DNA from: an uncultured Alphaproteobacteria bacterium
GTDB lineage: Bacteria; Pseudomonadota; Alphaproteobacteria; Rhizobiales; Xanthobacteraceae
Length of the DNA: 64,000 nt
Assembly (NCBI GenBank): GCA_963841705.1
Contig: CAWJDY010000043.1
Coordinates: 41,163-105,162, forward strand
Direction: 5' to 3'
The notes under the pieces are model-generated. The model had not been told where the DNA came from. It searched no databases and saw nothing but the letters and a program-made list of their open reading frames with translations. Every line of letters begins with the position of its first letter. Position 1 is the first letter of the stretch. Shown here piece by piece: positions 24,223 to 41,012 of this stretch. The translations under genes were made by a program, and so were the position numbers.

Positions 24223-24385
24223 GATTCTCCTGGTTGCGCTGAGCAGCGCCGCATAGTCGAGCAACGCCGAAGAGTCTTTCACCGGGTCGCCACTAAAGAC
24301 ACGGCGCGTCGCCGGGCCTGTCGAACTTTCGCCTCGGGGTCCTGTCGGTTCGGTCCCCGAGATTCGTCTTATGGCACGTCTTGGC

Positions 24386-26314: not shown

Positions 26315-26439
26315 GTTTTCGGTCTGCCTTGCCTAGCTCCCCTTTGGGCCGCTCTCAAGTCATTCGCCAAAACTCGGACCTACCGATGGCGCGATACTCG
26401 CGCGATCGCCTACATGAGCGCAATCCTAAGGAGACGGAG

Positions 26440-26646
26440 ATGGCGACAGGAACCGTGAAGTGGTTCAATCCGACGAAGGGGTATGGTTTCATTCAGCCTC
26501 AGAGCGGTGGCAAGGACGTGTTCGTCCACATTTCCGCTGTCGAGCGGGCCGGACTAAGCTCCCTGAATGAGGGGCAGGTCGTCGAATACGAGGTCGTCAG
26601 CAATCGCGGGAAGGAATCGGCAGAGAAGCTCAAGGTCACCCGATAA
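26440..26646 (+). CDS. cspA: cold-shock protein (CspA family)
   Basis: MATGTVKWFNPTKGYGFIQPQSGGKDVFVHISAVERAG... with RNP1/RNP2 motifs. AAGGAGA RBS; about 125-nt leader. Confidence 0.95.
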   Translation: MATGTVKWFNPTKGYGFIQPQSGGKDVFVHISAVERAGLSSLNEGQVVEYEVVSNRGKESAEKLKVTR

Positions 26647-26768
26647 GAGGGTGACCCGGTCCACAGCATTCGCACAGAGCTGCAAGCAGCGGCTCCAACC
26701 CTGGGGCAAACAGTGCCTGCGTGGACCTTGTTTTGCGGTACGTAGCGATGCATCGTTGCTAGTCCGTA

Positions 26769-26957
26769 CTACTTCTTCTTTTTCTTCGGGTTGGCGAGGT
26801 TGTCCGCTGCGTCCCTTGCCAACCTGAGCGCCCGCAAGCGCGCAGTCTTCTCCCGGGCGGCGCGCGCCTGGGCCTGATAGTCGGCCCAGGCCTGCGCACC
26901 TTCCCGAGCGCGTTGCTCCTTTTTATCCTCTGTTTGTTTCGTCATCTGTTTCGTCAT
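26769..26957 (-). CDS. small Lys/Arg/Ala-rich hypothetical protein
   Basis: 62-aa ORF MTKQMTKQTEDKKEQRAREGAQAWADYQAQARAAREK...KKKKK. Coding is likely but the function is unknown. Confidence 0.45.
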   Translation of the reverse strand: MTKQMTKQTEDKKEQRAREGAQAWADYQAQARAAREKTARLRALRLARDAADNLANPKKKKK

Positions 26958-26993
26958 CGCAAAGGCGGCTCGTTTTCGGAATGGTTCGCAGTG

Positions 26994-28352: not shown

Positions 28353-28885
28353 ATGGATACAATCTTTATATGGTGCGAGATGGCACAGGTCCTGAGCGCT
28401 CTGCGCCCCCTGACCGCCATGTCGCAGGGTGGGTGAAGACACCCCCGCGTGATCTGGGTTGTCACTGATGGATGAGCAAGCCAGATACCGTTTTACGGGG
28501 ATCCGCACACGCGGCTTGCCATGACCTTATGAAGGTCGCGTCGTTCATATGGAGCATACATATGTTAATTTCAAGGCGCTTGCCTTCCGAGCCGCCAAGC
28601 TGGTCTCTCGCGCGGCCAAGCCGGTCCCCAGCCTGCTCCATTTCGGCGCGGCTTGTCCGGCATTAATGTACCCGATACGCAACAAAGTTCTTGTAGATGG
28701 AAACGAGTTCGTCCATATCTCCACCGTCGAACGCGCCTGCCCAACTGACTCAGTCGGGACGGGCGCCTGAACAGAACCACGAAAACCAACAGAACCACCG
28801 TAATATCGTCAGATCCAGTCAATCATCGAGCCCTGCCCCGGCCCCGACGGCCGCATAGCGGGCTGCAACAAAGATCGGAAAACGC

Positions 28886-29173
28886 TTGCAGGTATTCGTT
28901 CGCGAAAACAATGTCGATCAGGCTCTTAGGATTCTCAAGAAGAAGATGCAGCGCGAGGGCGTCTTTCGCGAGATGAAGCGCCGGAAAGCTTATGAAAAAC
29001 CGTCCGAGCGCAAGACCCGGGAGAAAGCAGAAGCCATCCGCCGTGCACGCAAGGCGGCCCGCAAACAGGCGCAACGCGACGGATTGATTCCAACCCCCAA
29101 GCGTCGCGAGCTCACACGCGGCGGGGTTGGACGCGGCCGCGAAGGGGGCACGGAGAGCCAAAGGAGAGCGTAA
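28886..29173 (+). CDS. rpsU: 30S ribosomal protein S21 (with extended basic C-terminus)
   Basis: (TTG)[55 protein letters not shown]... Confidence 0.9.
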
Positions 29174-29390
29174 GCTTGTTCAGGCTTTCGGTCCGAATCA
29201 GGGATGAAGCCGGTCCGTGGCACAAACAGGCGTTTCGAGAATTCTGATCGGCCCCTACGGACTGCACGCCGTGCTTGCCGTGGTACTTGCGCTGTTTCTC
29301 GGATTTCTTTGGGCCTTCAACTTCACGGCCTTCTTTTAAGCATTGGCGCGCGACCTACCGGCATTTCCAAAGACACGCCACACCCCGCGC

Positions 29391-29672
29391 TCAGAAGTCG
29401 GTACTGATCAGATCGTAAGACCCTTTCCGTCCGCGTGCATAGACCTTTGCGGCGGCGGCGTAGATCAAGTCGCGATTCGCATCGAAGGCGCTGAGAAGTC
29501 CATCCTCATTGAGCCGCATGCCAGGCTGAACGCACCGCAAAGCATCTTCGGTTATGAAAAAAACAGCTTCCAATGCGCTGTCGTGGCCCCAAAACCGCAC
29601 GGCACGTCGGGTAGCGTCATAAAAACGGCTCTTATTGGGAAAGCTGAGCGTCATCGCCGGATGATTTTCCAA
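29391..29672 (-). CDS. DUF1488 family protein
   Basis: 93-aa ORF with the LSFPNKSRFYDATRRAVRFWGHDSALEAVFFITEDAL pattern typical of DUF1488. Confidence 0.7.
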   Translation of the reverse strand: MENHPAMTLSFPNKSRFYDATRRAVRFWGHDSALEAVFFITEDALRCVQPGMRLNEDGLLSAFDANRDLIYAAAAKVYARGRKGSYDLISTDF

Positions 29673-29681
29673 AGTTGCACC

Positions 29682-29864
29682 TTACTCCGAGCTCACCGGG
29701 AAGTCGCGAGAGGTGTTAACATCTGCGTCAGGTTCGGGCTCGGCACGCTCAGCTTTGCGCTGCGCAGCCTTTTCGTCCTTTCTTCGTTGCTTTTCCTCGC
29801 TGCGCGCGCGCGCTGCCCTCTGCCGTTCAGCCCGATCTCTACCGTAGTTTGGCTTGAATGCCAT
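29682..29864 (-). CDS. small basic hypothetical protein
   Basis: MAFKPNYGRDRAERQRAARARSEEKQRRKDEKAAQRKAERAEPEPD... (60 aa). The rest of ORF 29682..30197 is judged non-coding. Confidence 0.5.
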   Translation of the reverse strand: MAFKPNYGRDRAERQRAARARSEEKQRRKDEKAAQRKAERAEPEPDADVNTSRDFPVSSE

Positions 29865-29984
29865 CGGATCCTCTTTGTGGCCGGTTGATATCATCCGAGA
29901 CAATCCATAGATATATAATCGCTGGATGTATAGCCGCTCGAATCTGCCCTTTTGGCAGCGTTCCCGAAAAGGTGATGCTCTGTT

Positions 29985-30218
29985 ATGGCTCGGAAACCGG
30001 GAACGCGTGCCAGCGCTGAATTCGTGCTGTTCGATGTCTTTTATGAGGACGGCTCGCGGCGGTCCAATCGCAAGGTGCCAAGTGCGGTGCTGGCCGGCAT
30101 AGAAGGCGAGGCCGCCGCTGCCGTCTTCCTTACCGAGCAGGACCAGGCGATTGCAACGAAGTCCGGGCTCCCCGCAGTTGCCATAAAGGCCGTACACCGC
30201 TCCGGCAGAAAGGGTTAG
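29985..30218 (+). CDS. hypothetical protein
   Basis: 77-aa ORF, compositionally protein-like, tandem with the next ORF. Confidence 0.45.
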   Translation: MARKPGTRASAEFVLFDVFYEDGSRRSNRKVPSAVLAGIEGEAAAAVFLTEQDQAIATKSGLPAVAIKAVHRSGRKG

Positions 30219-30221
30219 CTC

Positions 30222-30467
30222 ATGCGCATCTACATATTCAAGTCAGAGTCGAGGAGGGAGCTGCGTGCATTCGCAGGCGATATAAGCGGGGACAAACTCC
30301 CGAAAAACCACGGTCCCTGGACGGCCACTGGCGTGATCGGAGCAGAGAAAGCACCTCCCCATAATCTCTCGCGTGAAGTGATCGAAGAAGCAATCCAAAC
30401 TGAGGGATTTCAGCTCTGGCGCCTGCAGAAAAAAGCAAAGAAGGAAAAGCTCCAGTCTGCGCCATAG
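30222..30467 (+). CDS. hypothetical protein
   Basis: 81-aa ORF MRIYIFKSESRRELRAFAGD..., 3 nt after the previous ORF, followed by hairpin GAGCTCC-GCGCTG-GGAGCCC. Confidence 0.45.
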   Translation: MRIYIFKSESRRELRAFAGDISGDKLPKNHGPWTATGVIGAEKAPPHNLSREVIEEAIQTEGFQLWRLQKKAKKEKLQSAP

Positions 30468-30514
30468 AGCTCCGCGCTGGGAGCCCGGCGCGTCTATGAG
30501 CTACACCCTCGAAT

Positions 30515-30588
30515 TGGTACTGACGTCAGGAGTTGAACCTGAATCACCCGGTTCACAGCCGAGTACTCTGCCGTTGAGCTACATCAGC
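30515..30588 (-). tRNA. tRNA-His(GUG), alphaproteobacterial type
   Basis: 74 nt. Acceptor GCUGAUG/CGUCAGU with G1-U72, A73, encoded CCA. Anticodon arm CUCGG-CUGUGAA-CCGGG. T arm UCAGG-UUCAACU-CCUGA. Base -1 is U (no G-1). Confidence 0.85.
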
Positions 30589-30589
30589 A

Positions 30590-30664
30590 TGGTGCCTATG
30601 GGTTGAATCGAACAACCGACACGCCGCATATGAAACGGCTGCTCCACCGCTGAGCTACACAGGC
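30590..30664 (-). tRNA. tRNA-Met or tRNA-Ile2 (CAU), elongator type
   Basis: 75 nt. Acceptor GCCUGUG/CAUAGGC, A73, CCA. D arm GCUC-AGCGGUG-GAGC. Anticodon arm GCCGU-UUCAUAU-GCGGC. T arm GGUUG-UUCGAUU-CAACC. No initiator features. Confidence 0.85.
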
Positions 30665-30675
30665 GTTTTCCGCAC

Positions 30676-30749
30676 TGGCTCCCCCTCATGGATTCGAACC
30701 ACGATCCTCGCATTCAAAGTGCGATATCCTGCCGTTAGACGAAGGGGGA
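30676..30749 (-). tRNA. tRNA-Gln(UUG)
   Basis: 74 nt. Acceptor UCCCCCU/AGGGGGA (U1-A72), G73, CCA. Anticodon arm UCGCA-CUUUGAA-UGCGA. T arm CGUGG-UUCGAAU-CCAUG. Confidence 0.85.
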
Positions 30750-30751
30750 AA

Positions 30752-30828
30752 TGGTCCGACCTGCGGGATTTGAACCCGCGTCACCTCGCTTGAAAGGCGA
30801 GCATCCTGGGCCACTAGACGAAGGTCGG
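30752..30828 (-). tRNA. tRNA-Glu(UUC)
   Basis: 77 nt. Acceptor CCGACCU/AGGUCGG, A73, CCA. Glu-type D region UCGUCUAGUGGCCCAGGA. Anticodon arm CUCGC-CUUUCAA-GCGAG. T arm GCGGG-UUCAAAU-CCCGC. Confidence 0.8.
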
Positions 30829-30830
30829 TT

Positions 30831-30905
30831 TGGTGCGGGCAGTGAGAATCGAACTCACGCGTCTTGGTTGGAAGCCAAGCACGCACCCCAGTACGCCATG
30901 CCCGC
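30831..30905 (-). tRNA. tRNA-Gly(UCC)
   Basis: 75 nt. Acceptor GCGGGCA/UGCCCGC, A73, CCA. Anticodon arm CUUGG-CUUCCAA-CCAAG. T arm GUGAG-UUCGAUU-CUCAC. Confidence 0.9.
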
Positions 30906-30912
30906 ATTGATT

Positions 30913-31000
30913 TGGCGGAGAGTTGAGAGCACGATTCTCACCGGCTAACCCGGCCGATCGCTTAGCAGGCGACGCTGGGCACCCGCCCAGTTAACTCTCC
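30913..31000 (-). tRNA. tRNA with Ser anticodon GCU, tRNA-Sec/allo-tRNA-like 8/4 fold
   Basis: 88 nt. 8-bp acceptor GGAGAGUU/AACUCUCC, G73, CCA, AA linker. D arm is a 6-bp stem CUGGGC/GCCCAG with 4-nt loop GGGU. Anticodon arm GUCGC-CUGCUAA-GCGAU. Variable hairpin CCGG-GUUAG-CCGG. 4-bp T stem GAGA/UCUC, loop AUCGUGC. Confidence 0.7.
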
Positions 31001-31004
31001 AGGT

Positions 31005-31079
31005 TGGAGACCGCGACACGATTCGAACGTGCATCCTCCGATGTAGGAAATCGGCGCTCATCCTTTGAGCTACGCGGCC
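31005..31079 (-). tRNA. tRNA-Arg(CCU)
   Basis: 75 nt. Acceptor GGCCGCG/CGCGGUC, U73, CCA. D arm GCUC-AAAGGAU-GAGC. Anticodon arm CCGAU-UUCCUAC-AUCGG. T arm GCACG-UUCGAAU-CGUGU. Confidence 0.85.
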
Positions 31080-31129
31080 ATGGAAGAAAAGCTGATCAGT
31101 CCCGGTCCGGGCTCTTCCAACCGATCTGT

Positions 31130-31579
31130 TTAACGGCGCTGCCTGCGCAAAGGGTACGAACTGGACTGGCCGTCTGGACTCGCAATGACCACCACATAAC
31201 CGTCGGGGTCGCGGAGCCACATTTCTCGATGTTGAGGCCCGGGGTTGACGTGAGGTTCTTCGATGATCTCGGTCCGCAATGCGCGCGCACGCTCCACGAC
31301 GGAGTCAAAGTCGTCAACCTGGAACCAAAGTAAGACCCCGTGTCCGGGAGGCGCGGCATTCGCGTCGACCAGGTTTGCGTGATTCTCCTCGTCCCAAGCG
31401 TGGAGTTGAAGAATCAAATGACCGGACGAGGACATCCGGTCGTACACGTCACGATGACTGTGTTCGGGGAGCGAGTCTGCCCCAAGCAGTTCCGCGTACC
31501 AGCGACTGCTCGCTCTTACATTGCGCACGGCTATGAGGGGTTGAGCCTGGACGCTTGATTTCTGCACAGCGGAGCTCAT
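31130..31579 (-). CDS. VOC (glyoxalase/bleomycin-resistance/dioxygenase) family protein
   Basis: 149-aa ORF with a GGAGGAC RBS 7 nt upstream. Embedded in the tRNA array on the same strand. Confidence 0.8.
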   Translation of the reverse strand: MSSAVQKSSVQAQPLIAVRNVRASSRWYAELLGADSLPEHSHRDVYDRMSSSGHLILQLHAWDEENHANLVDANAAPPGHGVLLWFQVDDFDSVVERARALRTEIIEEPHVNPGPQHREMWLRDPDGYVVVIASPDGQSSSYPLRRQRR

Positions 31580-31658
31580 ATGTCCTCCTGCTTTTGATAG
31601 TTCGCACTGAATCTCTGCGCATCAGATAATATGGCGCCGCCTTGACGCCGAGAATGAG

Positions 31659-31734
31659 TGGAGCTCCAGGCTGGATTCGAACCAGCATGTGCCGATTTAG
31701 AAGATCGGTGCCTCTCCGCTCGAGCCACTGGAGC
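31659..31734 (-). tRNA. tRNA-Arg(UCU)
   Basis: 76 nt. Acceptor GCUCCAG/CUGGAGC, U73, CCA. Anticodon arm CCGAU-CUUCUAA-AUCGG. T arm GCUGG-UUCGAAU-CCAGC. Confidence 0.85.
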
Positions 31735-31735
31735 T

Positions 31736-31809
31736 TGGAGACCAGAGCCGGAATTGAACCGGCGTGGGCGCTTTTGCAGAGCGCTCCCTAACCACTCGGG
31801 CATCTGGTC
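31736..31809 (-). tRNA. tRNA-Cys(GCA)
   Basis: 74 nt. Acceptor GACCAGA/UCUGGUC, U73, CCA. Anticodon arm GCGCU-CUGCAAA-AGCGC. T arm GCCGG-UUCAAUU-CCGGC. Confidence 0.9.
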
Positions 31810-31812
31810 GAT

Positions 31813-31887
31813 TGGCAGCCCGTCGCGGACTTGAACCGCGGCATCCGCTTTCAGAGAGCGGCGCTCTACCAGCTGAGCTAACGGGCA
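31813..31887 (-). tRNA. tRNA-Gln(CUG)
   Basis: 75 nt. Acceptor UGCCCGU/ACGGGCU with a U1-U72 mismatch, G73, CCA. D arm GCUC-AGCUGGUA-GAGC. Anticodon arm CCGCU-CUCUGAA-AGCGG. T arm CGCGG-UUCAAGU-CCGCG. Confidence 0.75.
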
Positions 31888-31889
31888 AT

Positions 31890-31968
31890 TGGTCAGGGCG
31901 GGTGGATTCGAACCACCGGTCTCCTGCTTCCAAGGCAGGCAGGGACGGCCAGGCTCCCCTACACCCTG
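31890..31968 (-). tRNA. tRNA-Pro(UGG)
   Basis: 79 nt. Acceptor CAGGGUG/CGCCCUG (C1-G72), A73, CCA. Anticodon arm CCUGC-CUUGGAA-GCAGG. T arm GGUGG-UUCGAAU-CCACC. Confidence 0.85.
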
Positions 31969-31974
31969 ATGAAT

Positions 31975-32051
31975 TGGCGCGCACGGGAGGACTCGAACCT
32001 CCACCGCCCGGATTCGTAGTCCGGCACATTGTCCAGTTGTGCTACGTGCGC
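31975..32051 (-). tRNA. tRNA-Arg(ACG), array copy
   Basis: 77 nt. Acceptor GCGCACG/CGUGCGC, G73, CCA. Anticodon arm CCGGA-CUACGAA-UCCGG. T arm GGAGG-UUCGAGU-CCUCC. Differs from the tRNA-Arg(ACG) at 41013-41089 at 18 of 77 positions by hand alignment. Confidence 0.9.
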
Positions 32052-32055
32052 AGAT

Positions 32056-32129
32056 TGGAGCGGCCGACGGGATTTGAACCCGCGTTTCCCGGCTTGAGGG
32101 GCTAGTGTGCTGCCTTAGACGACGACCGC
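32056..32129 (-). tRNA. tRNA-like, Glu(CUC)-type, imperfect anticodon arm (possible pseudogene)
   Basis: 74 nt. Acceptor GCGGUCG/CGGCCGC, U73, CCA. T arm GCGGG-UUCAAAU-CCCGU. D region UCGUCUAAGGCAG. Anticodon arm CUAGC-CCCUCAA-GCCGG has an A-C mismatch and C at position 33. Confidence 0.45.
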
Positions 32130-32133
32130 GAAT

Positions 32134-32211
32134 TGGCTCCGGCCGGTGGATTCGAACCACCCTCATTCTCGGTTAACAGCCGAGCGCGCTCACCTAGAGT
32201 GCTAGACCGGA
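32134..32211 (-). tRNA. tRNA-Asn(GUU)
   Basis: 78 nt. Acceptor UCCGGUC/GGCCGGA (U1-A72), G73, CCA. Anticodon arm CUCGG-CUGUUAA-CCGAG. T arm GGUGG-UUCGAAU-CCACC. Confidence 0.8.
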
Positions 32212-32216
32212 AGAAT

Positions 32217-32321
32217 TGGTGGAGACAGTCGGTAACGCGTCGCAACCCGGGCCCGCCCGGGTTGCGCATCATCGACCCGCGACGATCTTGCAAGGATCAT
32301 CTGCACCCTTGTGCTGTCCCC
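32217..32321 (-). ncRNA. tRNA-like unit of unknown specificity containing a REP-type hairpin (possible pseudogene)
   Basis: 105 nt, 1-5 nt from its neighbours. 8-bp acceptor-like helix GGGGACAG/CUGUCUCC plus ACCA. Hairpins CAAGG-11nt-CCUUG and AUCGUC-GCGGGUC-GAUGAU. An 11-bp hairpin CGCAACCCGGG/CCCGGGUUGCG resembles the R2 repeat. No recognisable T arm. Confidence 0.3.
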
Positions 32322-32322
32322 G

Positions 32323-32467
32323 TGGTGCCGAGGGTTGGTTTCGAGCCAACCTCCCCGCCGAAGTCGGATGTATCCGACTTCGGCCGACTTAACACTTGGC
32401 CGAACTCGAGTATACCCGAGTTCGGCTGTCTTCAGCGCGGTGCTTTCACCAGATGAGCTTCCTCGGC
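32323..32467 (-). tRNA. tRNA-Phe(GAA)-like gene expanded/disrupted by two long hairpins (possible pseudogene)
   Basis: 145 nt. Acceptor GCCGAGG/CCUCGGC, A73, CCA. D region AAGCUCAUCUGGUGAAAGC. CCGCG-CUGAAGA is not followed by a matching 3' stem. About 75 nt with perfect hairpins CCGAACUCG/CGAGUUCGG and GCCGAAGUCGGA/UCCGACUUCGGC. T arm GUUGG-CUCGAAA-CCAAC. Confidence 0.4.
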
Positions 32468-32503
32468 ATTTAACGTTGCAGACGGGTGTAAACACCCTTT
32501 TGT

Positions 32504-32577
32504 TGGTGCGGGCGTCGGTAATCGAAACCGAGTCTCCTGAGTGGCGCTCAGGTGCTAGGCCTTCCAGCTACGTCCGC
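32504..32577 (-). tRNA. tRNA-Gly(GCC)-like, unusual anticodon loop
   Basis: 74 nt. Acceptor GCGGACG/CGCCCGC (one A-C mismatch), A73, CCA. Anticodon arm CCUGA-GCGCCAC-UCAGG (C at 33; a G32-C38 pair could reduce the loop to 5 nt). T arm UCGGU-UUCGAUU-ACCGA. Confidence 0.55.
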
Positions 32578-32601
32578 CATCAGGGCGTTTGCGCACGCTA
32601 T

Positions 32602-32692
32602 TGGTGGGAAGTGGACGGAATCGAACCTCTTGCCCGCAGGGACCGCGTTTACAGCGCGGCGACGGCACCAGCCTGTCCTTATGGCACTTCCC
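32602..32692 (-). tRNA. tRNA-Tyr(GUA), class II, non-standard D arm
   Basis: 91 nt. Acceptor GGGAAGU/ACUUCCC (an 8th G-C pair is possible), A73, CCA. Anticodon arm CCGCG-CUGUAAA-CGCGG. Variable hairpin CCC-UGC-GGG. D position occupied by GAC(A)GGC-UGGU-GCCGUC. T stem GAGG/CC(G)UC, loop UUCGAUU. Confidence 0.7.
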
Positions 32693-32697
32693 GTGTC

Positions 32698-32838
32698 TGG
32701 TTGCGGGTCCCGGGGTTGCACCGCAAGTCGGCTTTTGCCGACTTGCGGCACTTCATTTAGTGCCGGAAGTCGGGCAAGCCCGGCTTCCGGGCGATCGCGG
32801 CTTATGAGACCGCGTGGGTTCCTAACCGACCTACCCGC
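32698..32838 (-). tRNA. tRNA-Met(CAU)-like 5' half followed by three REP-type hairpins (probable pseudogene)
   Basis: 141 nt. The 5' half is good (acceptor strand GCGGGU, D arm GGU-CGGUUAGGA-ACC, anticodon arm CGCGGU-CUCAUAA-GCCGCG). Then come hairpins CCGGAAGCCGGGC/GCCCGACUUCCGG, GGCACU-AAAUGA-AGUGCC and GCAAGUCGGC-AAAA-GCCGACUUGC. No T arm; 3' end ACCCGC-AACCA. Confidence 0.35.
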
Positions 32839-32844
32839 TAAAAA

Positions 32845-32897
32845 TGGTGCGAAGGCTTTTACTCCCTCGCTTGCTGCCGGTACTTCCGCGGTCAGCA
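32845..32897 (-). ncRNA. tRNA fragment / minihelix with ACCA end
   Basis: 53 nt. Hairpin UGCUG(A)CCG..CGGCAGCA, then minihelix GCGAGGG-AGUAAAAG-CCUUCGC followed by ACCA. No cloverleaf. Confidence 0.25.
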
Positions 32898-32901
32898 GAA
32901 A

Positions 32902-32988
32902 TGGCGGATGCCTGACGTGTCGATCGCCACACCATGTGGTGCCATCCCGCTTCGAACGGGTGCCAGAGGCCGCTCTGGTTAAGCATCC
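32902..32988 (-). tRNA. tRNA with Ser anticodon CGA, tRNA-Sec/allo-tRNA-like 8/4 fold
   Basis: 87 nt. 8-bp acceptor GGAUGCUU/AGGCAUCC, G73, CCA, AA linker. D arm is a 6-bp stem CCAGAG/CUCUGG with 4-nt loop CGGC. Anticodon arm CCCG-UUCGAAG-CGGG. Variable hairpin GCACC-ACAU-GGUGU. 4-bp T stem GGCG/CGUC, loop AUCGACA. Confidence 0.7.
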
Positions 32989-32991
32989 ATG

Positions 32992-33096
32992 TGGAGGAAG
33001 GCCGCGGTCTCGATCCGCAGTGGCGAACCACCCGATCGCTTTCCAAGCAATGCCGATCGCCCGACCCCCGGACTTGATCCGGGGGTTTGACCTTCC
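32992..33096 (-). tRNA. tRNA with Ser anticodon GGA, 8/4-like fold with oversized D hairpin
   Basis: 105 nt. 8-bp acceptor GGAAGGUC/GGCCUUCC, U73, CCA, AA linker. 9-bp hairpin ACCCCCGGA-UCAAG-UCCGGGGGU. 11 extra nt. Anticodon arm AUUGC-UUGGAAA-GCGAU. Variable hairpin GUGG-UUCG-CCAC. T stem GCGG/CCGC, loop AUCGAGA. Confidence 0.5.
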
Positions 33097-33100
33097 GTAT

Positions 33101-33188
33101 TGGCGGATGGCGGAGCACTCGAAGCCCATGCCTTGCGGCACCATCGGTGTTCAAAGCCGCGCCGGCGAGCCTTGCCGGTTCACCATCC
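33101..33188 (-). tRNA. tRNA with probable Ser anticodon UGA, 8/4-like fold
   Basis: 88 nt. 8-bp acceptor GGAUGGUG/CGCCAUCC, G73, CCA, AA linker. D arm CCGGC-AAGGCUC-GCCGG. Weak anticodon arm GCGGC-UUUGAAC-ACCGA (3 central bp). Variable hairpin GUGCC-GCAA-GGCAU. 4-bp T stem GGGC/GCUC, loop UUCGAGU. Confidence 0.55.
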
Positions 33189-33192
33189 CTAT

Positions 33193-33267
33193 TGGCCTAC
33201 CGGATAGGAGTCCAACCTATGTCCTCGACGTTCGGAGGGTCGCGCTCATCCACTGAGCTACCGGTAG
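33193..33267 (-). tRNA. tRNA-Arg(CCG)
   Basis: 75 nt. Acceptor CUACCGG/CCGGUAG, G73, CCA. D arm GCUC-AGUGGAU-GAGC. Anticodon arm CGACC-CUCCGAA-CGUCG (C-C at 31-39). T arm AUAGG-UUGGACU-CCUAU (G instead of C56). Confidence 0.65.
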
Positions 33268-33276
33268 TTTGTTTGT

Positions 33277-33366
33277 TGGTCGGCGCCCCGGGTTACGATC
33301 CCGACCGTCTACAGCAGTCCGCTGCCCCGGTTTATAAGACCGAGCCGCACGCCAGTGCTGACGCCG
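33277..33366 (-). tRNA. class-II-shaped tRNA with Ile anticodon UAU
   Basis: 90 nt. Acceptor CGGCGUC/GGCGCCG, A73, CCA. D arm GCAC-UGGC-GUGC (4-nt loop). 6-bp anticodon stem CUCGGU/ACCGGG, loop CUUAUAA. Long variable region with hairpin CAGC-GGACU-GCUG. T arm UCGGG-AUCGUAA-CCCGG. Confidence 0.55.
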
Positions 33367-33406
33367 TGCAGAGAATGCGCGCGATATTCTCCTCATCGTC
33401 TGTCCT

Positions 33407-33483
33407 TGGTCGGAGTGGCTGGATTTGAACTAGCGACCTCTTCGTTCCGAACGAAGAGCGCTTCCAGGCTGCGCTACACTCCG
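33407..33483 (-). tRNA. tRNA-Pro(CGG)
   Basis: 77 nt. Acceptor CGGAGUG/CACUCCG (C1-G72), A73, CCA. D arm GCGC-AGCCUGGAA-GCGC. Anticodon arm CUUCG-UUCGGAA-CGAAG. T arm GCUAG-UUCAAAU-CCAGC (one A-C mismatch). Confidence 0.8.
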
Positions 33484-33487
33484 GAAA

Positions 33488-33562
33488 TGGCGCGCTGTAC
33501 GGGACTCGAACCCGTCTCGCTCGATAGACAGTCGAGCTGCCTCACCCGATGCATAACAGCGC
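33488..33562 (-). tRNA. tRNA-Asp(GUC)
   Basis: 75 nt. Acceptor GCGCUGU/ACAGCGC, G73, CCA. Anticodon arm CUCGA-CUGUCUA-UCGAG. T arm ACGGG-UUCGAGU-CCCGU. Confidence 0.85.
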
Positions 33563-33601
33563 AACGCAATCGTGAAGGCCGACTGCCGCGATCGACGAAA
33601 A

Positions 33602-33677
33602 TGGTGTGCCTGGCTCGTTTCGAACGAGCACTGAACGCGCTCTCAACGCGTTCCCTCTGCCATTGGGGTACAGGCAC
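33602..33677 (-). tRNA. class-I tRNA with Leu anticodon GAG (identity uncertain)
   Basis: 76 nt. Acceptor GUGCCUG/CAGGCAC, A73, CCA. D arm CCCC-AAUGGCAGA-GGG. Anticodon arm ACGCG-UUGAGAG-CGCGU. Only a 5-nt variable loop. T arm GCUCG-UUCGAAA-CGAGC. Confidence 0.75.
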
Positions 33678-33678
33678 A

Positions 33679-33765
33679 TGGAGGACCAGGCAGGAGTCGA
33701 ACCTGCGATGGGCATAGCCAGCGGATTAAGAGTCCGCCCCGTTCGGCCGCTACGGTGACTGGTCC
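33679..33765 (-). tRNA. tRNA-Lys(CUU) with enlarged variable region
   Basis: 87 nt. Acceptor GGACCAG/CUGGUCC, U73, CCA. Anticodon arm GCGGA-CUCUUAA-UCCGC. 14-nt variable region with mini-hairpin GGC-UAU-GCC. T arm GCAGG-UUCGACU-CCUGC. Confidence 0.65.
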
Positions 33766-33767
33766 CA

Positions 33768-33850
33768 TGGAGGACGCGAGTGGTTACGATCCACAGGCCG
33801 ACGGGTTAAAAGTCCGCTCCCTCTCCATTCGGGTTTAAGGCTTCGCGTCC
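33768..33850 (-). tRNA. tRNA-Lys(UUU)-like, oversized D region
   Basis: 83 nt. Acceptor GGACGCG/CGCGUCC, U73, CCA. Anticodon arm GCGGA-CUUUUAA-CCCGU (A-C at 31-39). T stem GUGG/CCAC, loop AUCGUAA. Confidence 0.55.
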
Positions 33851-33854
33851 GGAT

Positions 33855-33931
33855 TGGTGCAAGCGGGAGGTTACTCCCTCCTCCTACCACGCGGTTATCG
33901 GCCGCGGCCCTCGCTTCTCGGACTCGCTTGC
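33855..33931 (-). tRNA. tRNA-like with Ile anticodon GAU, non-canonical T and anticodon loops
   Basis: 77 nt. Acceptor GCAAGCG/CGCUUGC, A73, CCA. Anticodon arm CGCGG-CCGAUAA-CCGCG (C at 33). T stem GGAGG/CCUCC with a 9-nt loop AGGGAGUAA lacking UUC. Confidence 0.4.
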
Positions 33932-33948
33932 ATGTTTGGTCTTTTGAT

Positions 33949-34024
33949 TGGTGCTCCCTGACGGACTCGAACCGCCGAATGTCCGGGTGTAAACCAGATG
34001 CCTTTGCCGCTTGGCGAAGGGAGC
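33949..34024 (-). tRNA. tRNA-Val(UAC)
   Basis: 76 nt. Acceptor GCUCCCU/AGGGAGC, A73, CCA. Anticodon arm UCUGG-UUUACAC-CCGGA. T arm GGCGG-UUCGAGU-CCGUC. Confidence 0.9.
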
Positions 34025-34030
34025 GTTATC

Positions 34031-34110
34031 TGGTGCCCGTGATAGGATTCGAACCTACACTGTCACTTCTTTTGAGGAAGTGGCCGCTACCGGGATTGGG
34101 CTACACGGGC
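34031..34110 (-). tRNA. class-I tRNA with Leu anticodon CAA (identity uncertain)
   Basis: 80 nt. Acceptor GCCCGUG/CACGGGC, A73, CCA. D region UAGCCCAAUCCCGGUAGCGGC. Anticodon arm ACUUC-CUCAAAA-GAAGU. 5-nt variable loop. T arm GUAGG-UUCGAAU-CCUAU. Confidence 0.75.
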
Positions 34111-34112
34111 AT

Positions 34113-34190
34113 TGGTGCGCCAGGCGAGATTCGAACTCGCACTGCTCTCGTTCTGAGCGAGATGCCTCCTGCCAATTGGGCTACCGGCGC
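34113..34190 (-). tRNA. class-I tRNA with Leu anticodon CAG (identity uncertain)
   Basis: 78 nt. Acceptor GCGCCGG/CUGGCGC, A73, CCA. D region UAGCCCAAUUGGCAGGAGGC. Anticodon arm UCUCG-CUCAGAA-CGAGA. 5-nt variable loop. T arm GCGAG-UUCGAAU-CUCGC. Confidence 0.75.
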
Positions 34191-34279
34191 ATGCTGCTCT
34201 CTCGGATGAGCAGAGCATGATCCCGAAAAGTTGCAAGCTTTTGGACACGATCATGCGACCGAACAAGGTCAGAGCGAAT
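34191..34279 (-). other. structured spacer with anticodon-loop-like hairpin (not a cloverleaf)
   Basis: 89 nt between two tRNAs. Long hairpin GCAUGAUC..GAUCAUGC capped by AAAAG-CUUGCAA-CUUUU (UGC in a 7-nt loop with U33/A37). Second hairpin AUGCU(CU)GCUC-AUCCGAGA-GAGCAGCAU. No acceptor stem or CCA. Confidence 0.2.
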
Positions 34280-34353
34280 TGGAGCCCTCACCTGGACTTG
34301 AACCAGGCTCCCCGCCTTACAAGAACGGAGCATCACCGCAATGCTTTGAGGGC
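34280..34353 (-). tRNA. tRNA-Thr(UGU)
   Basis: 74 nt. Acceptor GCCCUCA/UGAGGGC, U73, CCA. D arm GCAU-UGCGGUG-AUGC. Anticodon arm CCGUU-CUUGUAA-GGCGG. T arm CCUGG-UUCAAGU-CCAGG. Confidence 0.9.
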
Positions 34354-34374
34354 GCAATACCTTCAGGATCATGT

Positions 34375-34446
34375 TGCTGGCAGCAGGGATCAAACCTCCC
34401 GACGCCACATATGAGAGTGGCGCTCTATCGCCTTAACCCTGCCAGC
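34375..34446 (-). tRNA. degenerate tRNA-Met(CAU)-like unit, first in array (possible pseudogene)
   Basis: 72 nt. Acceptor GCUGGCA/UGCCAGC, A73, no encoded CCA. Stem GCCAC/GUGGC with 8-nt loop UCUCAUAU. T arm GGAGG-UUUGAUC-CCUGC with a G-G mismatch. Poor D arm. Confidence 0.35.
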
Positions 34447-34505
34447 GCTGACATGTTCTCGCCGAAACCAGAGCCGTTGGTCGGTCCTACGGGTCGAGAG
34501 GCGCT

Positions 34506-34533
34506 CTTATGCGTAGGGAGCGCCGGCCTGCAA
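34506..34533 (-). promoter_or_regulatory. candidate sigma-70-type promoter for the tRNA array
   Basis: Minus strand TTGCAG (34533-34528), 16-nt spacer, CATAAG (34511-34506), about 60 nt upstream of the first array unit. Motif match only. Confidence 0.2.
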
Positions 34534-34541
34534 CGATTCGA

Positions 34542-34733
34542 TCATTCCGAGCCGAAAATCCGCTCGAAATCAGCGTCTGCGCGCGCAACGATCTCGCGCG
34601 CGATATCGGGATTGGCGATGGCGGTCTTGCCGAAGACGAACGAGCGCCGGCACGCGCGCCGCTGCTCCGGCGACGCAGTGGTGTCGCGGGTGCTCTCGAT
34701 CAGCTCGTCTTTGGTCTTGGTGTCGCGGACCAC
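34542..34733 (-). CDS. small hypothetical protein
   Basis: 63-aa ORF MVRDTKTKDELIESTRDTTASPEQRR...IAREIVARADADFERIFGSE. Protein-like composition; no family recognised. Confidence 0.3.
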   Translation of the reverse strand: MVRDTKTKDELIESTRDTTASPEQRRACRRSFVFGKTAIANPDIAREIVARADADFERIFGSE

Positions 34734-35067
34734 TTGGTCCTCCTGCCTGTTGGCGGAGGACTTGGGTCTCCGCCGGTTACGCTAGGGCTAAGCTTTGCCC
34801 TTGTTCGCCTGTTATCTGATGCCTGGGCATAGCCCCGCACGAACGCCGCCGATCGCTCGGCCGATCAAACGGCCGTGCGGCGGCGGTTGAGAGCGCGGTA
34901 TGTGGTCTTAACGACAACATCTCTTCCTCAGGTCCTCAGGGCGACGCAACTCGTCCTTGAACAGCGCGCTCATATAGTGAGCAGCTGCAAAAAGTCAAGT
35001 GCACGCGAGCAACATGCTCTCTCTTTCTCTAACAGGCGGTTATTCTACGCAAAGCGGGCAGAGCAAC

Positions 35068-36070
35068 TCAACGGGCTGCCTTCGCCTTCTCATAAAAGCT
35101 GAGGTCGATGTATTTCATCGGATCCTTCAGCTCCTTTTTAGGCTCGCCATACTGGCTGCGCAACGCGAGCACGGTGCGTACGCCCTTCGACGTCGATCGA
35201 AGCGTCGCGTGCGAAGCCGTCCTTCGGGTCCATCAAGATGCCATAGGACTTGTTGGCAAGGTCCTCGGCCATGTTGGGCAGGTTCTTGCGCAGGATCGCG
35301 ATCGCCTCGGCCTTGTTGGCAGGGTCGTAGAGCCAACCAACGGCTGCTCGATAGCCGCGGATGAAACCCGCGACCTGCAACTCGTTCTCCTTCGCCCATT
35401 GCCGCCGCGAACAGGCAACGACGCCCTGGTAATGCCCGAGCACGTCGACCGCATTGGCGAGCCGGTTGAAACCGCGTGCCTCCGCGGCTGCCTCGAACGG
35501 CGAAACGAGCAGGGTTGCGGCATGCTTCTTGGCGAGGAGCGCCTCGAACCGCTGTAGCACGCCGCCTGCTTTCACATACGTGACATCGTCGGGCTTGAGC
35601 CCGCCTTTCTCGAGCAGCTTCTCGAGGACAAAGGCGTAGCCGGTCGTGCGCGCATCGACCGATACCTCCTTGCCCTTGAGGTCGGCATAGGTCTTCACCT
35701 CCGGCAGGCTGACCAGCCGCAGGAAACCGTTGTCAGAACCCATAACCGCGACGAGGTCCGGCGTCTGGGTGGTCGATGCCTCGCCCTGACCTTCCATGTA
35801 GGCGATGATATTATCAATTGCGGTCATCGCGATGTCGAACTTGCCGTCGATCAAATTCGTGAGCTGGAACACCGAGTTCGGCGTGGGTGTGATCCTGACT
35901 GCCACGTTACCGCGCGCGAACAAGCCTTTCTCCTGCGCGACCCAGATCGGCCAGTTGAAACCGCCAGGGAAGACGATGACCTCTATAGGCTTGGAGGCTT
36001 GTGCCGTCGCCGGGCTGATGAGCCCAAGCGACACAAGGATGGATGTAAGTGCCGTGAGCGGGCGACCCAT
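35068..36070 (-). pseudogene. ABC transporter substrate-binding protein (NMT1/THI5-like, sulfonate/nitrate/taurine type) with apparent 1-nt frameshift near the 3' end
   Basis: The ORF 35138..36070 has a signal peptide and an SBP body. After ...DASIDVEG the family-typical C-terminus VRTVLALRSQYGEPKKELKDPMKYIDLSFYEKAKAAR continues in another frame to the stop at 35068-35070. The switch is at a GGG/CCC run at 35182-35184. Confidence 0.75.
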
Positions 36071-36074
36071 GAAT

Positions 36075-37238
36075 TTATCTCCTCGCTTCTGTTGGGGCTT
36101 GTTGCCGAGCTGCGGCGTGCGCGGCGTCGTATTGCGCCATGAGCTTTGGCGAGGCGCGGCGAAGGCGGGCCTTATCGACCCGACCGGAACGGGTGATGTA
36201 GCTCAAGGCAAAATCGAGCGGATCGAGCCGCATGTGCTCAGGGAAGCGCTCGTACCACGAGGCGCTTGCCTTCGCGGCCTTGACGAGCTTTTCGACCACC
36301 GGCTTGCGAGTCGCCTCGTACCGCTCAAGACCAGCCCTGATGTCGCCAGGCTCGGCATCGAGCGCCTTGACCACCGCGATGACGTCCTCCATGGCCAGAC
36401 GCGTACCCGACCCGATGGAGAAATGCGCGGTGCGCAGCGCATCGCCGACCAGCACCATGTTGCGGAAGCTCCAGCGCTCGTTCCAGATCCAGGGGAAGTT
36501 GCGCCAGACCGACTTGTTTGAGGCCAGAGGCTGCCCTCCCAGCGCAACGGCAAATACCTTCTCGCAAAGGGCTTTGGTCTCCTCCGGGCTTTTTTCGGCA
36601 AAGCCTGCGCGCAGCCACGTGTCGCGATCGCATTCGATGATGAACGTGCTCATCGTCGGCGAGTAGCGATAGTGATGAGCGTTGAATGTGCCGATGTCGT
36701 TTTCGACGAACGTTTGCGTCAACGTTTCGAACCTTCGTGCCGTGCCATACCAGACGAACTTGTTGTCGAGATAGCAAAGCGAAGTCTTGAAATCTCCCTC
36801 GAAGCTGCGACGAACTAGCGAGTTCACCCCGTCTGCCGCGACGATCAGATCGAACTCTTTCAGCTCGTCGAGGGATTTGATCGTGTGATTGTACCGCGGC
36901 TCGACCCCGACCGAGCAGGCCCGGCCCTGCAGCATCAGCAGGAAGTCCAAACGTCCGATCGCCGAGAATCCAACGCCGTCGATCTGGATTTCCTCGCCCT
37001 GATGGCAGAGCACGAGATCCTGCCAGGTCTCCATTCGCCTGGTGATGATCTCCTCGGTCTCCGGATCGTCGGCGCGCAGAAACTCCAGCGCGCGGTCCGA
37101 AAACACGACTCCGAAACCAAAAGTGGCATCGGCAGGGTTCTGCTCGAACACCTCGATCTGCGCCTCCGGATGCCGTCGCTTCCAAAGGTAGGCGAAGTAC
37201 AGGCCGGCGGGGCCGGCCCCGAGAACCGCGATAAGCAT
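36075..37238 (-). CDS. FAD-dependent monooxygenase (aromatic hydroxylase family)
   Basis: 387-aa ORF. GAGPAG dinucleotide fold at the N-terminus, DG motif (AADGVNS), GD motif (LVGDALRTAHFSIGSG). Confidence 0.85.
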   Translation of the reverse strand: MLIAVLGAGPAGLYFAYLWKRRHPEAQIEVFEQNPADATFGFGVVFSDRALEFLRADDPETEEIITRRMETWQDLVLCHQGEEIQIDGVGFSAIGRLDFLLMLQGRACSVGVEPRYNHTIKSLDELKEFDLIVAADGVNSLVRRSFEGDFKTSLCYLDNKFVWYGTARRFETLTQTFVENDIGTFNAHHYRYSPTMSTFIIECDRDTWLRAGFAEKSPEETKALCEKVFAVALGGQPLASNKSVWRNFPWIWNERWSFRNMVLVGDALRTAHFSIGSGTRLAMEDVIAVVKALDAEPGDIRAGLERYEATRKPVVEKLVKAAKASASWYERFPEHMRLDPLDFALSYITRSGRVDKARLRRASPKLMAQYDAAHAAARQQAPTEARR

Positions 37239-37278
37239 GTTGGGCTCCGCTACGATGACGAGCCGTGCGTTCGATCAG

Positions 37279-41007: not shown

Positions 41008-41012
41008 AGTAG

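Follow-up and report, generated by a model that had tools for sequence, protein, structure and literature searches.

A 64-kb stretch of contig CAWJDY010000043.1 from an uncultured bacterium of the Xanthobacteraceae (hereafter the window; coordinates are positions in it unless a locus is named) carries a dense tRNA array transcribed on the minus strand. Our unit map resolves 30515-34446 into 35 back-to-back tRNA-type units of 74-145 nucleotides (nt) each. The array exists in addition to the core tRNA set, and arrays of the same family have moved between genomic contexts. Together with an upstream promoter, a leader RNA, a short open reading frame (ORF) named ORF-B and a spacer, it forms a module that spans ~35045 to 30503 on the minus strand. 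We consider it probable that this module is a horizontally acquired L-array read as one sigma-70 unit, and that it likely keeps a restrained reserve pool of tRNAs which would be released under translational trouble. Co-transcription, regulation by the leader, tRNA charging and a benefit to the host are what we infer beyond the observed array, its accessory status and its mobility.

An accessory tRNA array in unrelated contexts

With default settings, ARAGORN called 23 minus-strand tRNAs between 30515 and 34353 and a single tRNA in the other 60 kb of the window, Arg-ACG at 41013-41089. The Rfam tRNA model RF00005 matched the array at or above its gathering score 21 times in a whole-window scan and 22 times in a focused scan (39-63 bits, E 1e-12 to 7e-6), and the union of both programs at default thresholds comprises 24 of the 35 units. 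Relaxed ARAGORN settings added Ser GCU, Ser UGA, Ser GGA, Ser CGA, a Tyr-like unit and unit 1, and the last five (GAU-like, UUU-like, Met-like CAU, Phe GAA and Ala-like UGC) were resolved through orthologous arrays. Thirty-four units have an encoded CCA at the 3′ end, unit 1 ending in ACA instead. Units are separated by 1-40 nt, with two longer interruptions, a REP-like element (89 nt) and a cassette with a VOC-family gene (579 nt). The array covers 19 amino-acid specificities on one strand. A preliminary description made from the sequence alone had proposed a dense one-strand array of about 35 tRNA and tRNA-like genes, most of them ending in an encoded CCA, with spacers of 1-40 nt and at least 17 specificities; the new map bears this out, apart from the two long interruptions, and agrees with every anticodon listed there. 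The description was mistaken in finding no Ala unit, as the unit it had left unassigned (32217-32321) is Ala(UGC)-like with G3:U70 and A73. It was right about Trp, for which there is no gene, merely a doubtful 14-nt trace at 30497-30510.

By definition, a tRNA array unit, or L-array, has 20 or more tRNA genes and no fewer than two of them per kb (Tran et al. 2016, PMC4758250; Santamaria-Gomez et al. 2021, PMC8421152). L-arrays are horizontally spread, consist of supernumerary tRNAs and are often linked to HNH genes (PMC8421152). The window has 24 units by default detection, or 35 in the full map, within 3.93 kb. All are on the minus strand with short gaps, two insertions aside, and their succession is non-periodic: Tandem Repeats Finder reported no tandem repeat array among the units, and the anticodon order does not repeat. 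The module in the window has no HNH endonuclease, a linkage that is frequent but not obligatory in L-arrays.

The supernumerary status of the block was established from its flanks. Contig L116, a metagenome contig found through an exact match to the ribosomal protein S21 of the window, aligns with 18610-30502 and 41013-46478 at ~97% identity (blastn) and lacks the entire block. Between these flanks, it shares just 152 nt with the 10.5-kb variable region that holds the array (30503-41012, no strand assigned). At the array site, L116 instead has 3.5 kb (its positions 11428-14898) with an AEP-TOTE primase and a ResIII/DUF559 helicase-nuclease, the domains that Pfam assigns to the TOTE conflict system. 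The host tRNA-Arg(ACG) (41013-41089, minus strand; ARAGORN, Rfam 63.6 bits) is present in L116 and abuts the variable region with its 3′ end; the 3′ halves of the gene differ between the window and L116, and the site beside it is a variable hotspot. A 17-nt direct repeat of tRNA-Arg marks the far end of the insert in L116. No such att-like repeat was found in the window, and direct repeats of tRNA-Arg were rejected as att sites of the window island.

These comparisons bear on the idea that the block is the ordinary core tRNA set, clustered as in Firmicutes. Its 19 specificities on one strand would suit such a set, but the idea is effectively refuted by the absence of the block from L116, by the separate host-type Arg-ACG 6.5 kb away that differs from the array copy at 18 of 77 positions, by five broken units and the lack of a Trp gene, and by locus L006, which keeps a fraction of the array. 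By comparison of its flanks and copies, the block is an accessory array. The preliminary view of a second, divergent tRNA set that did not arise by recent duplication of host genes, based on the same 18 differences in Arg-ACG, holds.

Relatives were identified with two queries. A spurious ORF called across the tRNA array (31576-32166), used as a protein, gave 54 relatives in metagenome assemblies, and an ORF-B profile search added 20 metagenome loci. Arrays with the same gene order occur in more than 25 soil-metagenome contigs with unrelated flanks; the flanks are distinct in every independent locus, and at least eight contexts share none. The order of the family, with variably present units in brackets, is Thr CGU, Thr UGU, (Thr GGU), Leu CAG, (Leu UAA), Leu CAA, Val UAC, (Val GAC, Ile GAU), Lys CUU, Leu GAG, Asp, Pro CGG, UAU unit, Arg CCG, Ser, Tyr, Gly GCC, Phe, Ala, Asn, Glu CUC, Arg ACG, Pro UGG, Gln CUG, Cys, Arg UCU, Arg CCU, Ser GCU, Gly UCC, Glu UUC, Gln UUG, Met, His, (Trp). 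The ancestral array provided a full second complement of tRNAs covering all 20 amino acids. Intact arrays are found in L082, L092, L096 and L111. The window is a mosaic relative to L082: some blocks are 83-85% identical and others 95-97%, a pattern that hints at recombination among arrays. The early impression of a likeness to the arrays of phages, integrative and conjugative elements (ICEs) and a few bacterial lineages has thus held up, both in the L-array definitions and in the recurrence of the order in unrelated contexts.

Neighbors of the related arrays include genes of mobility and conflict. In L086, two tyrosine-recombinase genes, Prim-Pol and DUF3987 stand beside the array; L082 has an HNH endonuclease gene inside it; AIPR adjoins the array of L083; and HigB, BrnT or RelB toxin-antitoxin pairs and an N6/N4 methyltransferase are neighbors in L082, L087-L089 and L111. 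A separate observation in L082 (8619-9155, 10790-12546) concerns this HNH gene and a 1.5-kb insert with an AIDA-like repeat protein and an unknown ORF between duplicated Gly-UCC genes, the duplication suggesting insertion targeted to a tRNA gene.

The HNH gene within the L082 array and the integrases flanking the L086 array would fit a remnant of a phage or prophage tRNA cluster, once used for phage codon usage or counter-defense. We regard this origin as very improbable. The window has no phage structural or replication genes within 10 kb of the array and so lacks the context of a phage cluster; 50,697 phage records (distant mode) gave generic single-tRNA similarity only; IMG/VR had no match for the array pseudo-ORF, the ORF-B profile or the UAU unit; and the array has its own rhizobial-type promoter and leader at every locus. 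The plasmid collection (near mode) had no array match either. As far as we found, with published arrays compared by description, the family is widespread in soil bacteria and apparently not yet described.

Sequence conservation separates the units from the DNA between them. Identity between the window and L096 is 88% in tRNA units and 68% in spacers, and for L092 it is 90% and 67%. Single units, including those without a detector call, are mostly 92-100% identical across the closer arrays, and the Ser units of the irregular (8/4) type described below are 92-100% conserved. This pattern shows purifying selection on the array units; the upstream module, including the leader, is under purifying selection as well. 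The co-occurrence under selection of canonical and several irregular tRNA classes in one mobile operon appears to be new.

The upstream module

A promoter, leader, ORF-B and spacer are common to all family members with upstream sequence; they lie beyond the region treated in the preliminary description. The conserved cassette of these four parts appears to be new. Its features in the window are:

35023-35066, minus: upstream boundary of the module; homology among array loci begins with TAACCGxCTxTTAGAGAAAG, and the homology of L118 ends at 35067
34972-34999, minus: promoter, CTTGAC (34994-34999), 16-nt spacer, CTATAT (34972-34977); conserved in ~17 array loci
34734-34965, minus: structured 5′ leader RNA, ~230 nt; apical stem 34844-34886, hairpin GGCGGAG/CTCCGCC 34752-34774
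34777-34920, minus: ORF-A, 47 codons, inside the leader
34542-34733, minus: ORF-B, 63 amino acids; GTG start 5 nt past AGGAGGA
34447-34541, minus: spacer, 95 nt, from ORF-B to the first tRNA; hairpin 1 at 34500-34524, stem-loop 2 at 34457-34499

Homology across the family begins ~45 nt upstream of the −35 box. The promoter matches what we take to be the rhizobial sigma-70 consensus, CTTGAC-N17-CTATAT; a generic Escherichia coli-type promoter scan did not list CTTGAC-N16-CTATAT.

The leader is more conserved than ORF-B, and its predicted fold is significantly stable, with a minimum free energy z-score of −3.58 and none of 200 shuffles equally stable. In both the consensus (RNAalifold) and the centroid structures, GUCCUCCGCC pairs with the Shine-Dalgarno region GGC-AGGAGGAC, and the upstream GGCGGAG is the competitor; the 3′ strand of the leader hairpin can alternatively pair with the Shine-Dalgarno AGGAGG (34739-34744). 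The two competing partners form a 28-nt imperfect direct repeat. Neither the leader nor the spacer had an Rfam match, permissive thresholds giving chance-level matches only. ORF-A was considered as a second leader gene and rejected, its pN/pS being ~1 in three pairwise comparisons; it is probably not coding.

ORF-B is open in all 21 loci compared, with every indel a multiple of three, and its pooled pN/pS is 0.52 in frame vs 1.1 in the other two frames. By these substitution and indel patterns, ORF-B is a coding sequence. It has no Pfam, NCBIfam or PADLOC match. In a collection of 5.8 billion proteins, it is represented by 116 clusters, all of 59-74 amino acids and without annotation. Its AlphaFold (AF2) model is helical but weak (pLDDT 65, pTM 0.35). 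The array follows ORF-B in 17 of the 20 metagenome loci, and four more were too short to show it. As a side observation, L095 and L096 have GTC in place of the GTG start, the remaining ORF being intact.

No intrinsic terminator was found after ORF-B in the terminator scan of the window. The spacer that follows is 90-98% identical in 14 loci, with compensatory changes at two of its base pairs. Its stability is not out of the ordinary, and it may therefore be a recognition or processing site.

Regular, irregular and damaged units

The units are listed in transcription order, with the elements found between them.

34372-34446, minus: unit 1, decayed tRNA-Thr(CGU); CAU anticodon after a 1-nt deletion, D arm broken, 3′ end AACA
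34280-34353, minus: tRNA-Thr(UGU); ARAGORN, Rfam 45.8 bits
34191-34279, minus: REP-like palindromic element GCATGATC...GATCATGC, at the site where relatives have Thr(GGU)
34113-34190, minus: tRNA-Leu(CAG), short (78 nt), without long variable arm, A73; ARAGORN, Rfam
34031-34110, minus: tRNA-Leu(CAA), short (80 nt), A73; ARAGORN, Rfam
33949-34024, minus: tRNA-Val(UAC); ARAGORN, Rfam
33855-33931, minus: GAU-like irregular tRNA; 7-bp acceptor stem, A73-CCA, non-canonical D and T loops
33768-33850, minus: UUU-like irregular tRNA; 8-bp acceptor stem, 4-bp T stem, loop ATCGTAA, U73-CCA
33679-33765, minus: tRNA-Lys(CUU), long (87 nt), 3-bp variable-arm hairpin, U73; ARAGORN, Rfam
33602-33677, minus: tRNA-Leu(GAG), short (76 nt), A73; ARAGORN only; 93-96% conserved
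33488-33562, minus: tRNA-Asp(GUC); ARAGORN, Rfam; 99-100% identical in 8 arrays
33407-33483, minus: tRNA-Pro(CGG); ARAGORN, Rfam
33277-33366, minus: UAU unit, 90 nt, allo-tRNA-like, A73; 3-bp D stem with tetraloop, 6-bp anticodon stem, variable-arm hairpin
33193-33267, minus: tRNA-Arg(CCG); ARAGORN, Rfam
33101-33188, minus: tRNA-Ser(UGA), 8/4 type (8-bp acceptor, 4-bp T stem), G73; relaxed ARAGORN
32992-33096, minus: tRNA-Ser(GGA), 8/4 type, U73; aligned to the 87-nt Ser-GGA of L096
32902-32988, minus: tRNA-Ser(CGA), 8/4 type, G73; relaxed ARAGORN
32839-32874, minus: fragment, a 7-bp hairpin followed by ACCA and TTTTT; terminator-like match
32698-32838, minus: Met-like CAU tRNA with a 66-nt palindromic insertion (~32724-32790); aligned to the intact 76-nt Met-CAU of L096
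32602-32692, minus: tRNA-Tyr(GUA)-like, 91 nt, 8 acceptor pairs, A73; Rfam tRNA-Sec 29.5 bits, under gathering score
32504-32577, minus: tRNA-Gly(GCC), A5-C68 mismatch; Rfam 42.3 bits (focused scan)
32323-32467, minus: tRNA-Phe(GAA) with a 69-nt double-hairpin insertion after nt 39 (32359-32427); aligned to the intact Phe of L096
32217-32321, minus: Ala(UGC)-like tRNA, G3:U70, A73, 3-bp D stem with tetraloop; aligned to L096 and to the Ala-UGC of L082
32134-32211, minus: tRNA-Asn(GUU), canonical; ARAGORN, Rfam at or above gathering score, as for the next six
32056-32129, minus: tRNA-Glu(CUC), canonical
31975-32051, minus: tRNA-Arg(ACG), canonical
31890-31968, minus: tRNA-Pro(UGG), canonical
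31813-31887, minus: tRNA-Gln(CUG), canonical
31736-31809, minus: tRNA-Cys(GCA), canonical
31659-31734, minus: tRNA-Arg(UCU), canonical
31080-31658, minus: inserted cassette with a VOC/glyoxalase-family gene (ORF 31130-31579; Pfam Glyoxalase), between Arg UCU and Arg CCU
31005-31079, minus: tRNA-Arg(CCU)
30913-31000, minus: tRNA-Ser(GCU), 8/4 type
30831-30905, minus: tRNA-Gly(UCC)
30752-30828, minus: tRNA-Glu(UUC)
30676-30749, minus: tRNA-Gln(UUG)
30590-30664, minus: tRNA-Met(CAU)
30515-30588, minus: tRNA-His(GUG)
30497-30510, minus: possible tRNA-Trp remnant GAGGGTGTAGCTCA at the right module boundary; aligned to the Trp of L082

Comparison with relatives distinguishes two kinds of oddity among these units. 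The preliminary description had marked several folds as non-canonical; for some of them this stands, as they are conserved 8/4-type or irregular tRNAs, while others are canonical tRNAs broken by insertion or decay. Phe, Met-like, Ala-like and Ser GGA belong to the latter, being canonical tRNAs with hairpin insertions, and unit 1 is a former Thr-CGU.

Among the conserved oddities, the four Ser units (UGA, GGA, CGA and GCU) all show a run of 8 acceptor pairs and a T stem of 4 bp, which agrees with the definition of (8/4) tRNA-Ser by a 12-bp acceptor branch split 8/4 or 9/3; variable-arm hairpins are present, and the discriminators are G, U, G and G. The eighth acceptor pair of Ser-UGA covaries, being G:C in the window and U:A in L084 and L086. 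The UAU unit was called Ile-UAU by ARAGORN, matched the Rfam tRNA-Sec model at 25.8 bits (under gathering score) and is 94-99% conserved. It lies outside the 8/4 or 9/3 allo-tRNA definition because it has seven consecutive acceptor pairs and, in relatives, a 5-bp T stem. The GAU-like unit, without any ARAGORN or Rfam call, is 94-96% conserved in 7 arrays, and the UUU-like unit is 85-98% conserved in 11, with a compensatory acceptor-stem change in L085. The Tyr-like unit is 95-100% conserved; relaxed ARAGORN mis-assigns its anticodon, and its relatives are called Tyr-GUA.

Length variants also segregate across the family. Leu CAA and Leu GAG, like Leu CAG, lack a long variable arm, and all three Leu units have A73. 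The short form of Leu CAG is common to L085, L091, L100, L101 and L109, and a form of 84-85 nt occurs in most other loci (e.g. L082, L092-L096, L098, L104 and L105); short and long versions exist across arrays for both Leu CAG and Leu CAA. In the long Lys-CUU, the stem of the variable-arm hairpin is kept among arrays and the loop varies; L082, L084 and L086 have a canonical Lys-CUU of 76-77 nt. The most regular stretch is the seven-tRNA block at 31659-32211, with 95-100% identity to L082 and L096.

The tRNA-His has G1:U72 and A73 and no encoded G−1, as in most family arrays aligned, L085 excepted. It thus conforms to the alphaproteobacterial type (no G−1, A73, G1:U72), whose features were reportedly set out by Wang et al. 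in 2007. This type suggests that the array originated and functions in Alphaproteobacteria. The A73 type of tRNA-His and its features are also described in PMC5389517. Relatives' arrays end in His-Trp. A longer Trp remnant in the window was rejected and reduced to ~14 nt, the adjacent bases being host sequence by L116, and even this short stretch is doubtful as a remnant, since L116 also contains 30497-30502.

The damaged units were recognized from their orthologs. Unit 1 scores 23.5 bits with RF00005, under gathering score, and aligns to the canonical Thr-CGU of L092; its identity to orthologs is 75-79%, vs 93-100% for other units. The insertions in four tRNA bodies are short, GC-rich hairpins of 18-69 nt. 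Ser-GGA carries an 18-nt extra D-region hairpin (the hairpin-forming sequence lies within 33065-33085), the Phe insertion is common to L092 and L094 at 94% identity, and the Ala-like unit has a 31-nt hairpin insertion (hairpin-forming sequence within ~32239-32276) that is absent from L096. They may represent damage or tolerated extra loops, as reported for some irregular soil tRNAs. They have no further copies within the window, and we rejected the idea that they are copies of a host repeat; only the REP-like element resembles a repeat elsewhere (L108). That element, which is also written GCATGATC...TTTTCGGGATCATGC, has a similar counterpart directly upstream of the L108 array and probably belongs to a host-lineage repeat family. 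The fragment at 32839-32874, conserved at 87-93% in L082 and L092-L094, looks like the GAU-like unit with an internal deletion, and is similar both to a tRNA minihelix and to an intrinsic terminator.

The VOC gene interrupts a pair of units (Arg UCU and Arg CCU) that are 18 nt apart in L082. Its relatives number more than 510 loci across phyla, almost none of them beside arrays. The best 80 share 68-94% protein identity and come from genomes labeled Acidobacteriota, Delta-, Alpha- and Gammaproteobacteria, Binataceae and Eremiobacterota. DNA identity of up to ~87-90% continues beyond the ORF, for ~65 nt on its upstream side and ~30 nt on its downstream side. The gene looks like an independent small cassette mobile between phyla. 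It was rejected as an anchor for related arrays, since the more than 510 loci gave only L006 as an array carrier.

The rest of the variable region holds genes for a SnoaL_2 protein, a zinc-ribbon/cyclase/AAA_16/TPR protein, a FAD mono-oxygenase and NMT1, and the wider surroundings consist of housekeeping genes (rpoD, a DEAD-box helicase gene, rpsU and a radical-SAM gene). An NMT1 ortholog locus, L118, is without array, and its match to the window stops at 35067. The NMT1 flank was discarded as an empty-site anchor, the closest long matches (L112-L115) being paralogous loci in other contexts. The zinc-ribbon/cyclase gene (37279-40330, minus strand) appears split into ORFs at 39863-40330 and 37279-39954; the deposited gene calls give 719 and 281 amino acids. 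An 85% match to L116 over the final 152 nt of the gene suggests that a remnant is common to both versions of the hotspot, and PADLOC matches of it to PycC cover the cyclase domain only. A group II intron (7020-7235, minus strand; RF02005 domain D1-D4, 116 bits) adjoins a reverse-transcriptase ORF (5371-6720, minus strand; RVT_1, E 1.6e-41) ~23 kb from the array.

Possible role and known systems

The preliminary description had offered three possible roles for the array: codon supply, a buffer against anticodon nucleases, and a source of tRNA-derived RNAs. The reserve pool that we favor would work as follows. One transcript would run from the promoter through the leader, ORF-B and the spacer into the 35 tRNA units, which the usual tRNA-processing nucleases would excise, the encoded CCA helping maturation. 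The reserve tRNAs would come into play when translation is disturbed or when the housekeeping tRNAs run short or are cut, with antibiotics, toxins of toxin-antitoxin systems and anticodon nucleases as proposed triggers. The sensor would be the leader switch that hides the ribosome-binding site, together with the translation of ORF-B. We favor this role because of the analogy with the L-array of Anabaena, which stays silent until translation becomes impaired and at that point promotes survival (PMC8421152), and because toxin-antitoxin and conflict genes are enriched around family members.

Several observations weigh against this reading. The leader helices are invariant, and there is therefore no covariation support for the proposed switch; the thermodynamic stability of the spacer is ordinary (z = −0.42). 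Terminator-like hairpins occur in the middle of the array, with a T-run (32839-32874), and ahead of the VOC gene (31633-31649), which makes transcription as a single unit, including the distal tRNAs, uncertain. Array and host Arg-ACG have the same anticodon loop, so that this one pair gives no sign of nuclease evasion. Five units are damaged (Thr-CGU, Ser-GGA, Met-like, Phe and Ala-like), Thr-GGU is gone with the REP-like element in its place, the Trp gene is missing, and both the REP-like element and the gene cassette have been inserted into the array; such damage fits decay equally well as use. L006, a Xanthobacteraceae metagenome-assembled genome, has the leader and ORF-B and only ~6 tRNAs left (its positions 1-7100); its Pro-CGG is truncated, ~4.4 kb of foreign genes including one for a cpYpsA SLOG protein have been inserted, and the Gln/Met/His block precedes the VOC gene. 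It is a late stage of array erosion and rearrangement.

The main rival takes up this damage: the array may be a selfish or neutral, decaying passenger that arrived horizontally, is silent and gives the host no benefit. The decayed Thr-CGU, the four hairpin insertions, the loss of Trp and Thr-GGU, the REP-like element and the VOC cassette all suit it, as do L006 and the arrays of L085-L090, which are shrunken or fragmented by foreign genes. Most L-arrays are also poorly transcribed, and counter-selection is expected (PMC8421152). Nonetheless, the units are clearly more conserved than the spacers, ~30 of them are intact, and the promoter, leader and ORF-B are intact and more conserved across loci than neutral DNA; the 116 ORF-B clusters argue for selection somewhere, on the element or on its hosts. 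On balance, we judge a mere passenger to be unlikely, though it deserves serious consideration.

A second question is whether the irregular units are the point of the array. They might be mainly non-decoding, as toxin decoys, mis-acylated tRNAs, amino-acid donors or sources of small RNAs, with the canonical tRNAs secondary. Four units (GAU-like, UUU-like, UAU and long Lys-CUU) depart from the cloverleaf and are nonetheless conserved, as a group at 94-100%, and the irregular 8/4 Ser units are conserved too; toxin-antitoxin genes adjoin several arrays; in E. coli, variants of allo-tRNA-UAU proved inactive or toxic, and they are associated with toxin-antitoxin loci (PMC5389517); and a sponge idea has been raised for Anabaena (PMC8421152). 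Most units are ordinary, however, and bear the usual identity elements, Leu having A73, Ala G3:U70 and Ser G73 or U73, and the ancestral set spans all 20 amino acids, as decoding would need. This account therefore strikes us as quite improbable.

A bolder form of the reserve-pool reading, which we hold to be rather doubtful, is that the promoter-leader-ORF-B-spacer module is a new sensor of translation status that switches on a mobile reserve tRNA operon, with the irregular tRNAs as functional parts. The helix that hides the ribosome-binding site of ORF-B would then control how ribosomes reach it, and this access would set the production or survival of the tRNA polycistron, and the irregular tRNAs (8/4 Ser, UAU, UUU-like, GAU-like and long Lys-CUU) would be nuclease-resistant replacements, toxin decoys or deliberately mis-charged. 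If this sensor reading is true, L-arrays gain a self-contained regulatory cassette that moves with them between hosts.

The purpose of L-arrays, and how hosts tolerate ~30 extra tRNA genes, are largely open questions, with functional data only for the Anabaena operon. In the present family, the leader and small ORF are conserved and travel with the array, making regulation directly testable, and conservation across arrays separates selected tRNA oddities from damage. The family also offers a natural series, from intact arrays through the partly eroded window to the nearly lost L006, plus the empty site in L116.

Three kinds of known system resemble parts of the module. Phage tRNA clusters (T4, T5, mycobacteriophages) are likewise dense and one-stranded, are associated with homing endonucleases and are used for codon supply or in place of tRNAs cut by host defenses, a replacement role like the one proposed here; the window array differs in being chromosomal, without phage context or any phage or IMG/VR match of its own, and in having a housekeeping-type promoter and leader. 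Leader-peptide attenuators and translational riboswitches, like the window leader, place a short ORF after alternative helices, one of which is predicted here to occlude the Shine-Dalgarno sequence. In the window, no terminator follows ORF-B, the downstream genes are tRNAs and not proteins, and ORF-B is long for a leader peptide (63 amino acids) with a conserved helical C-terminus, so that the likeness indicates a possible mechanism and not family membership.

Irregular tRNAs from soil metatranscriptomes, comprising (8/4) tRNA-Ser, (8/4) tRNA-His, allo-tRNAs and "polycistrons of irregular tRNAs," were described by Mukai et al. (2017; PMC5389517). As there, the window has 8/4 tRNA-Ser with a long variable arm and G73 or U73, and a tRNA-His without G−1 and with A73 that can be drawn as 8/4 in the window subfamily. 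In its features only, the UAU unit resembles the commonest allo-tRNA group (anticodon, long variable arm, short D stem with tetraloop). Both sets combine regular and irregular tRNAs in one polycistron with toxin-antitoxin neighbors; by description, the earlier polycistrons are short (three tRNA groups) and attributed to Acidobacteria. The present family places 8/4 tRNAs, formerly isolated curiosities, in a defined mobile element of soil bacteria, probably Alphaproteobacteria.

The closest likeness is to the L-arrays themselves, such as the trn operon of Anabaena PCC 7120 and the arrays of Acidithiobacillus ICEs. These are dense, same-strand, non-periodic, supernumerary, patchy and horizontally spread like the window array, and as in its family, gene order is kept between arrays, indels and pseudogenes are frequent, HNH genes occur in some and a single promoter lies upstream. 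Compared by description, the window family belongs to another lineage (soil metagenome contigs) with an alphaproteobacterial-type tRNA-His, and its array contains 8/4-type and other irregular tRNAs. It also has a conserved leader region of ~520 nt with a folded RNA, a predicted switch hiding the ribosome-binding site and the 63-amino-acid ORF, whereas the Anabaena operon is instead under 9-nt direct repeats that overlap its promoter.

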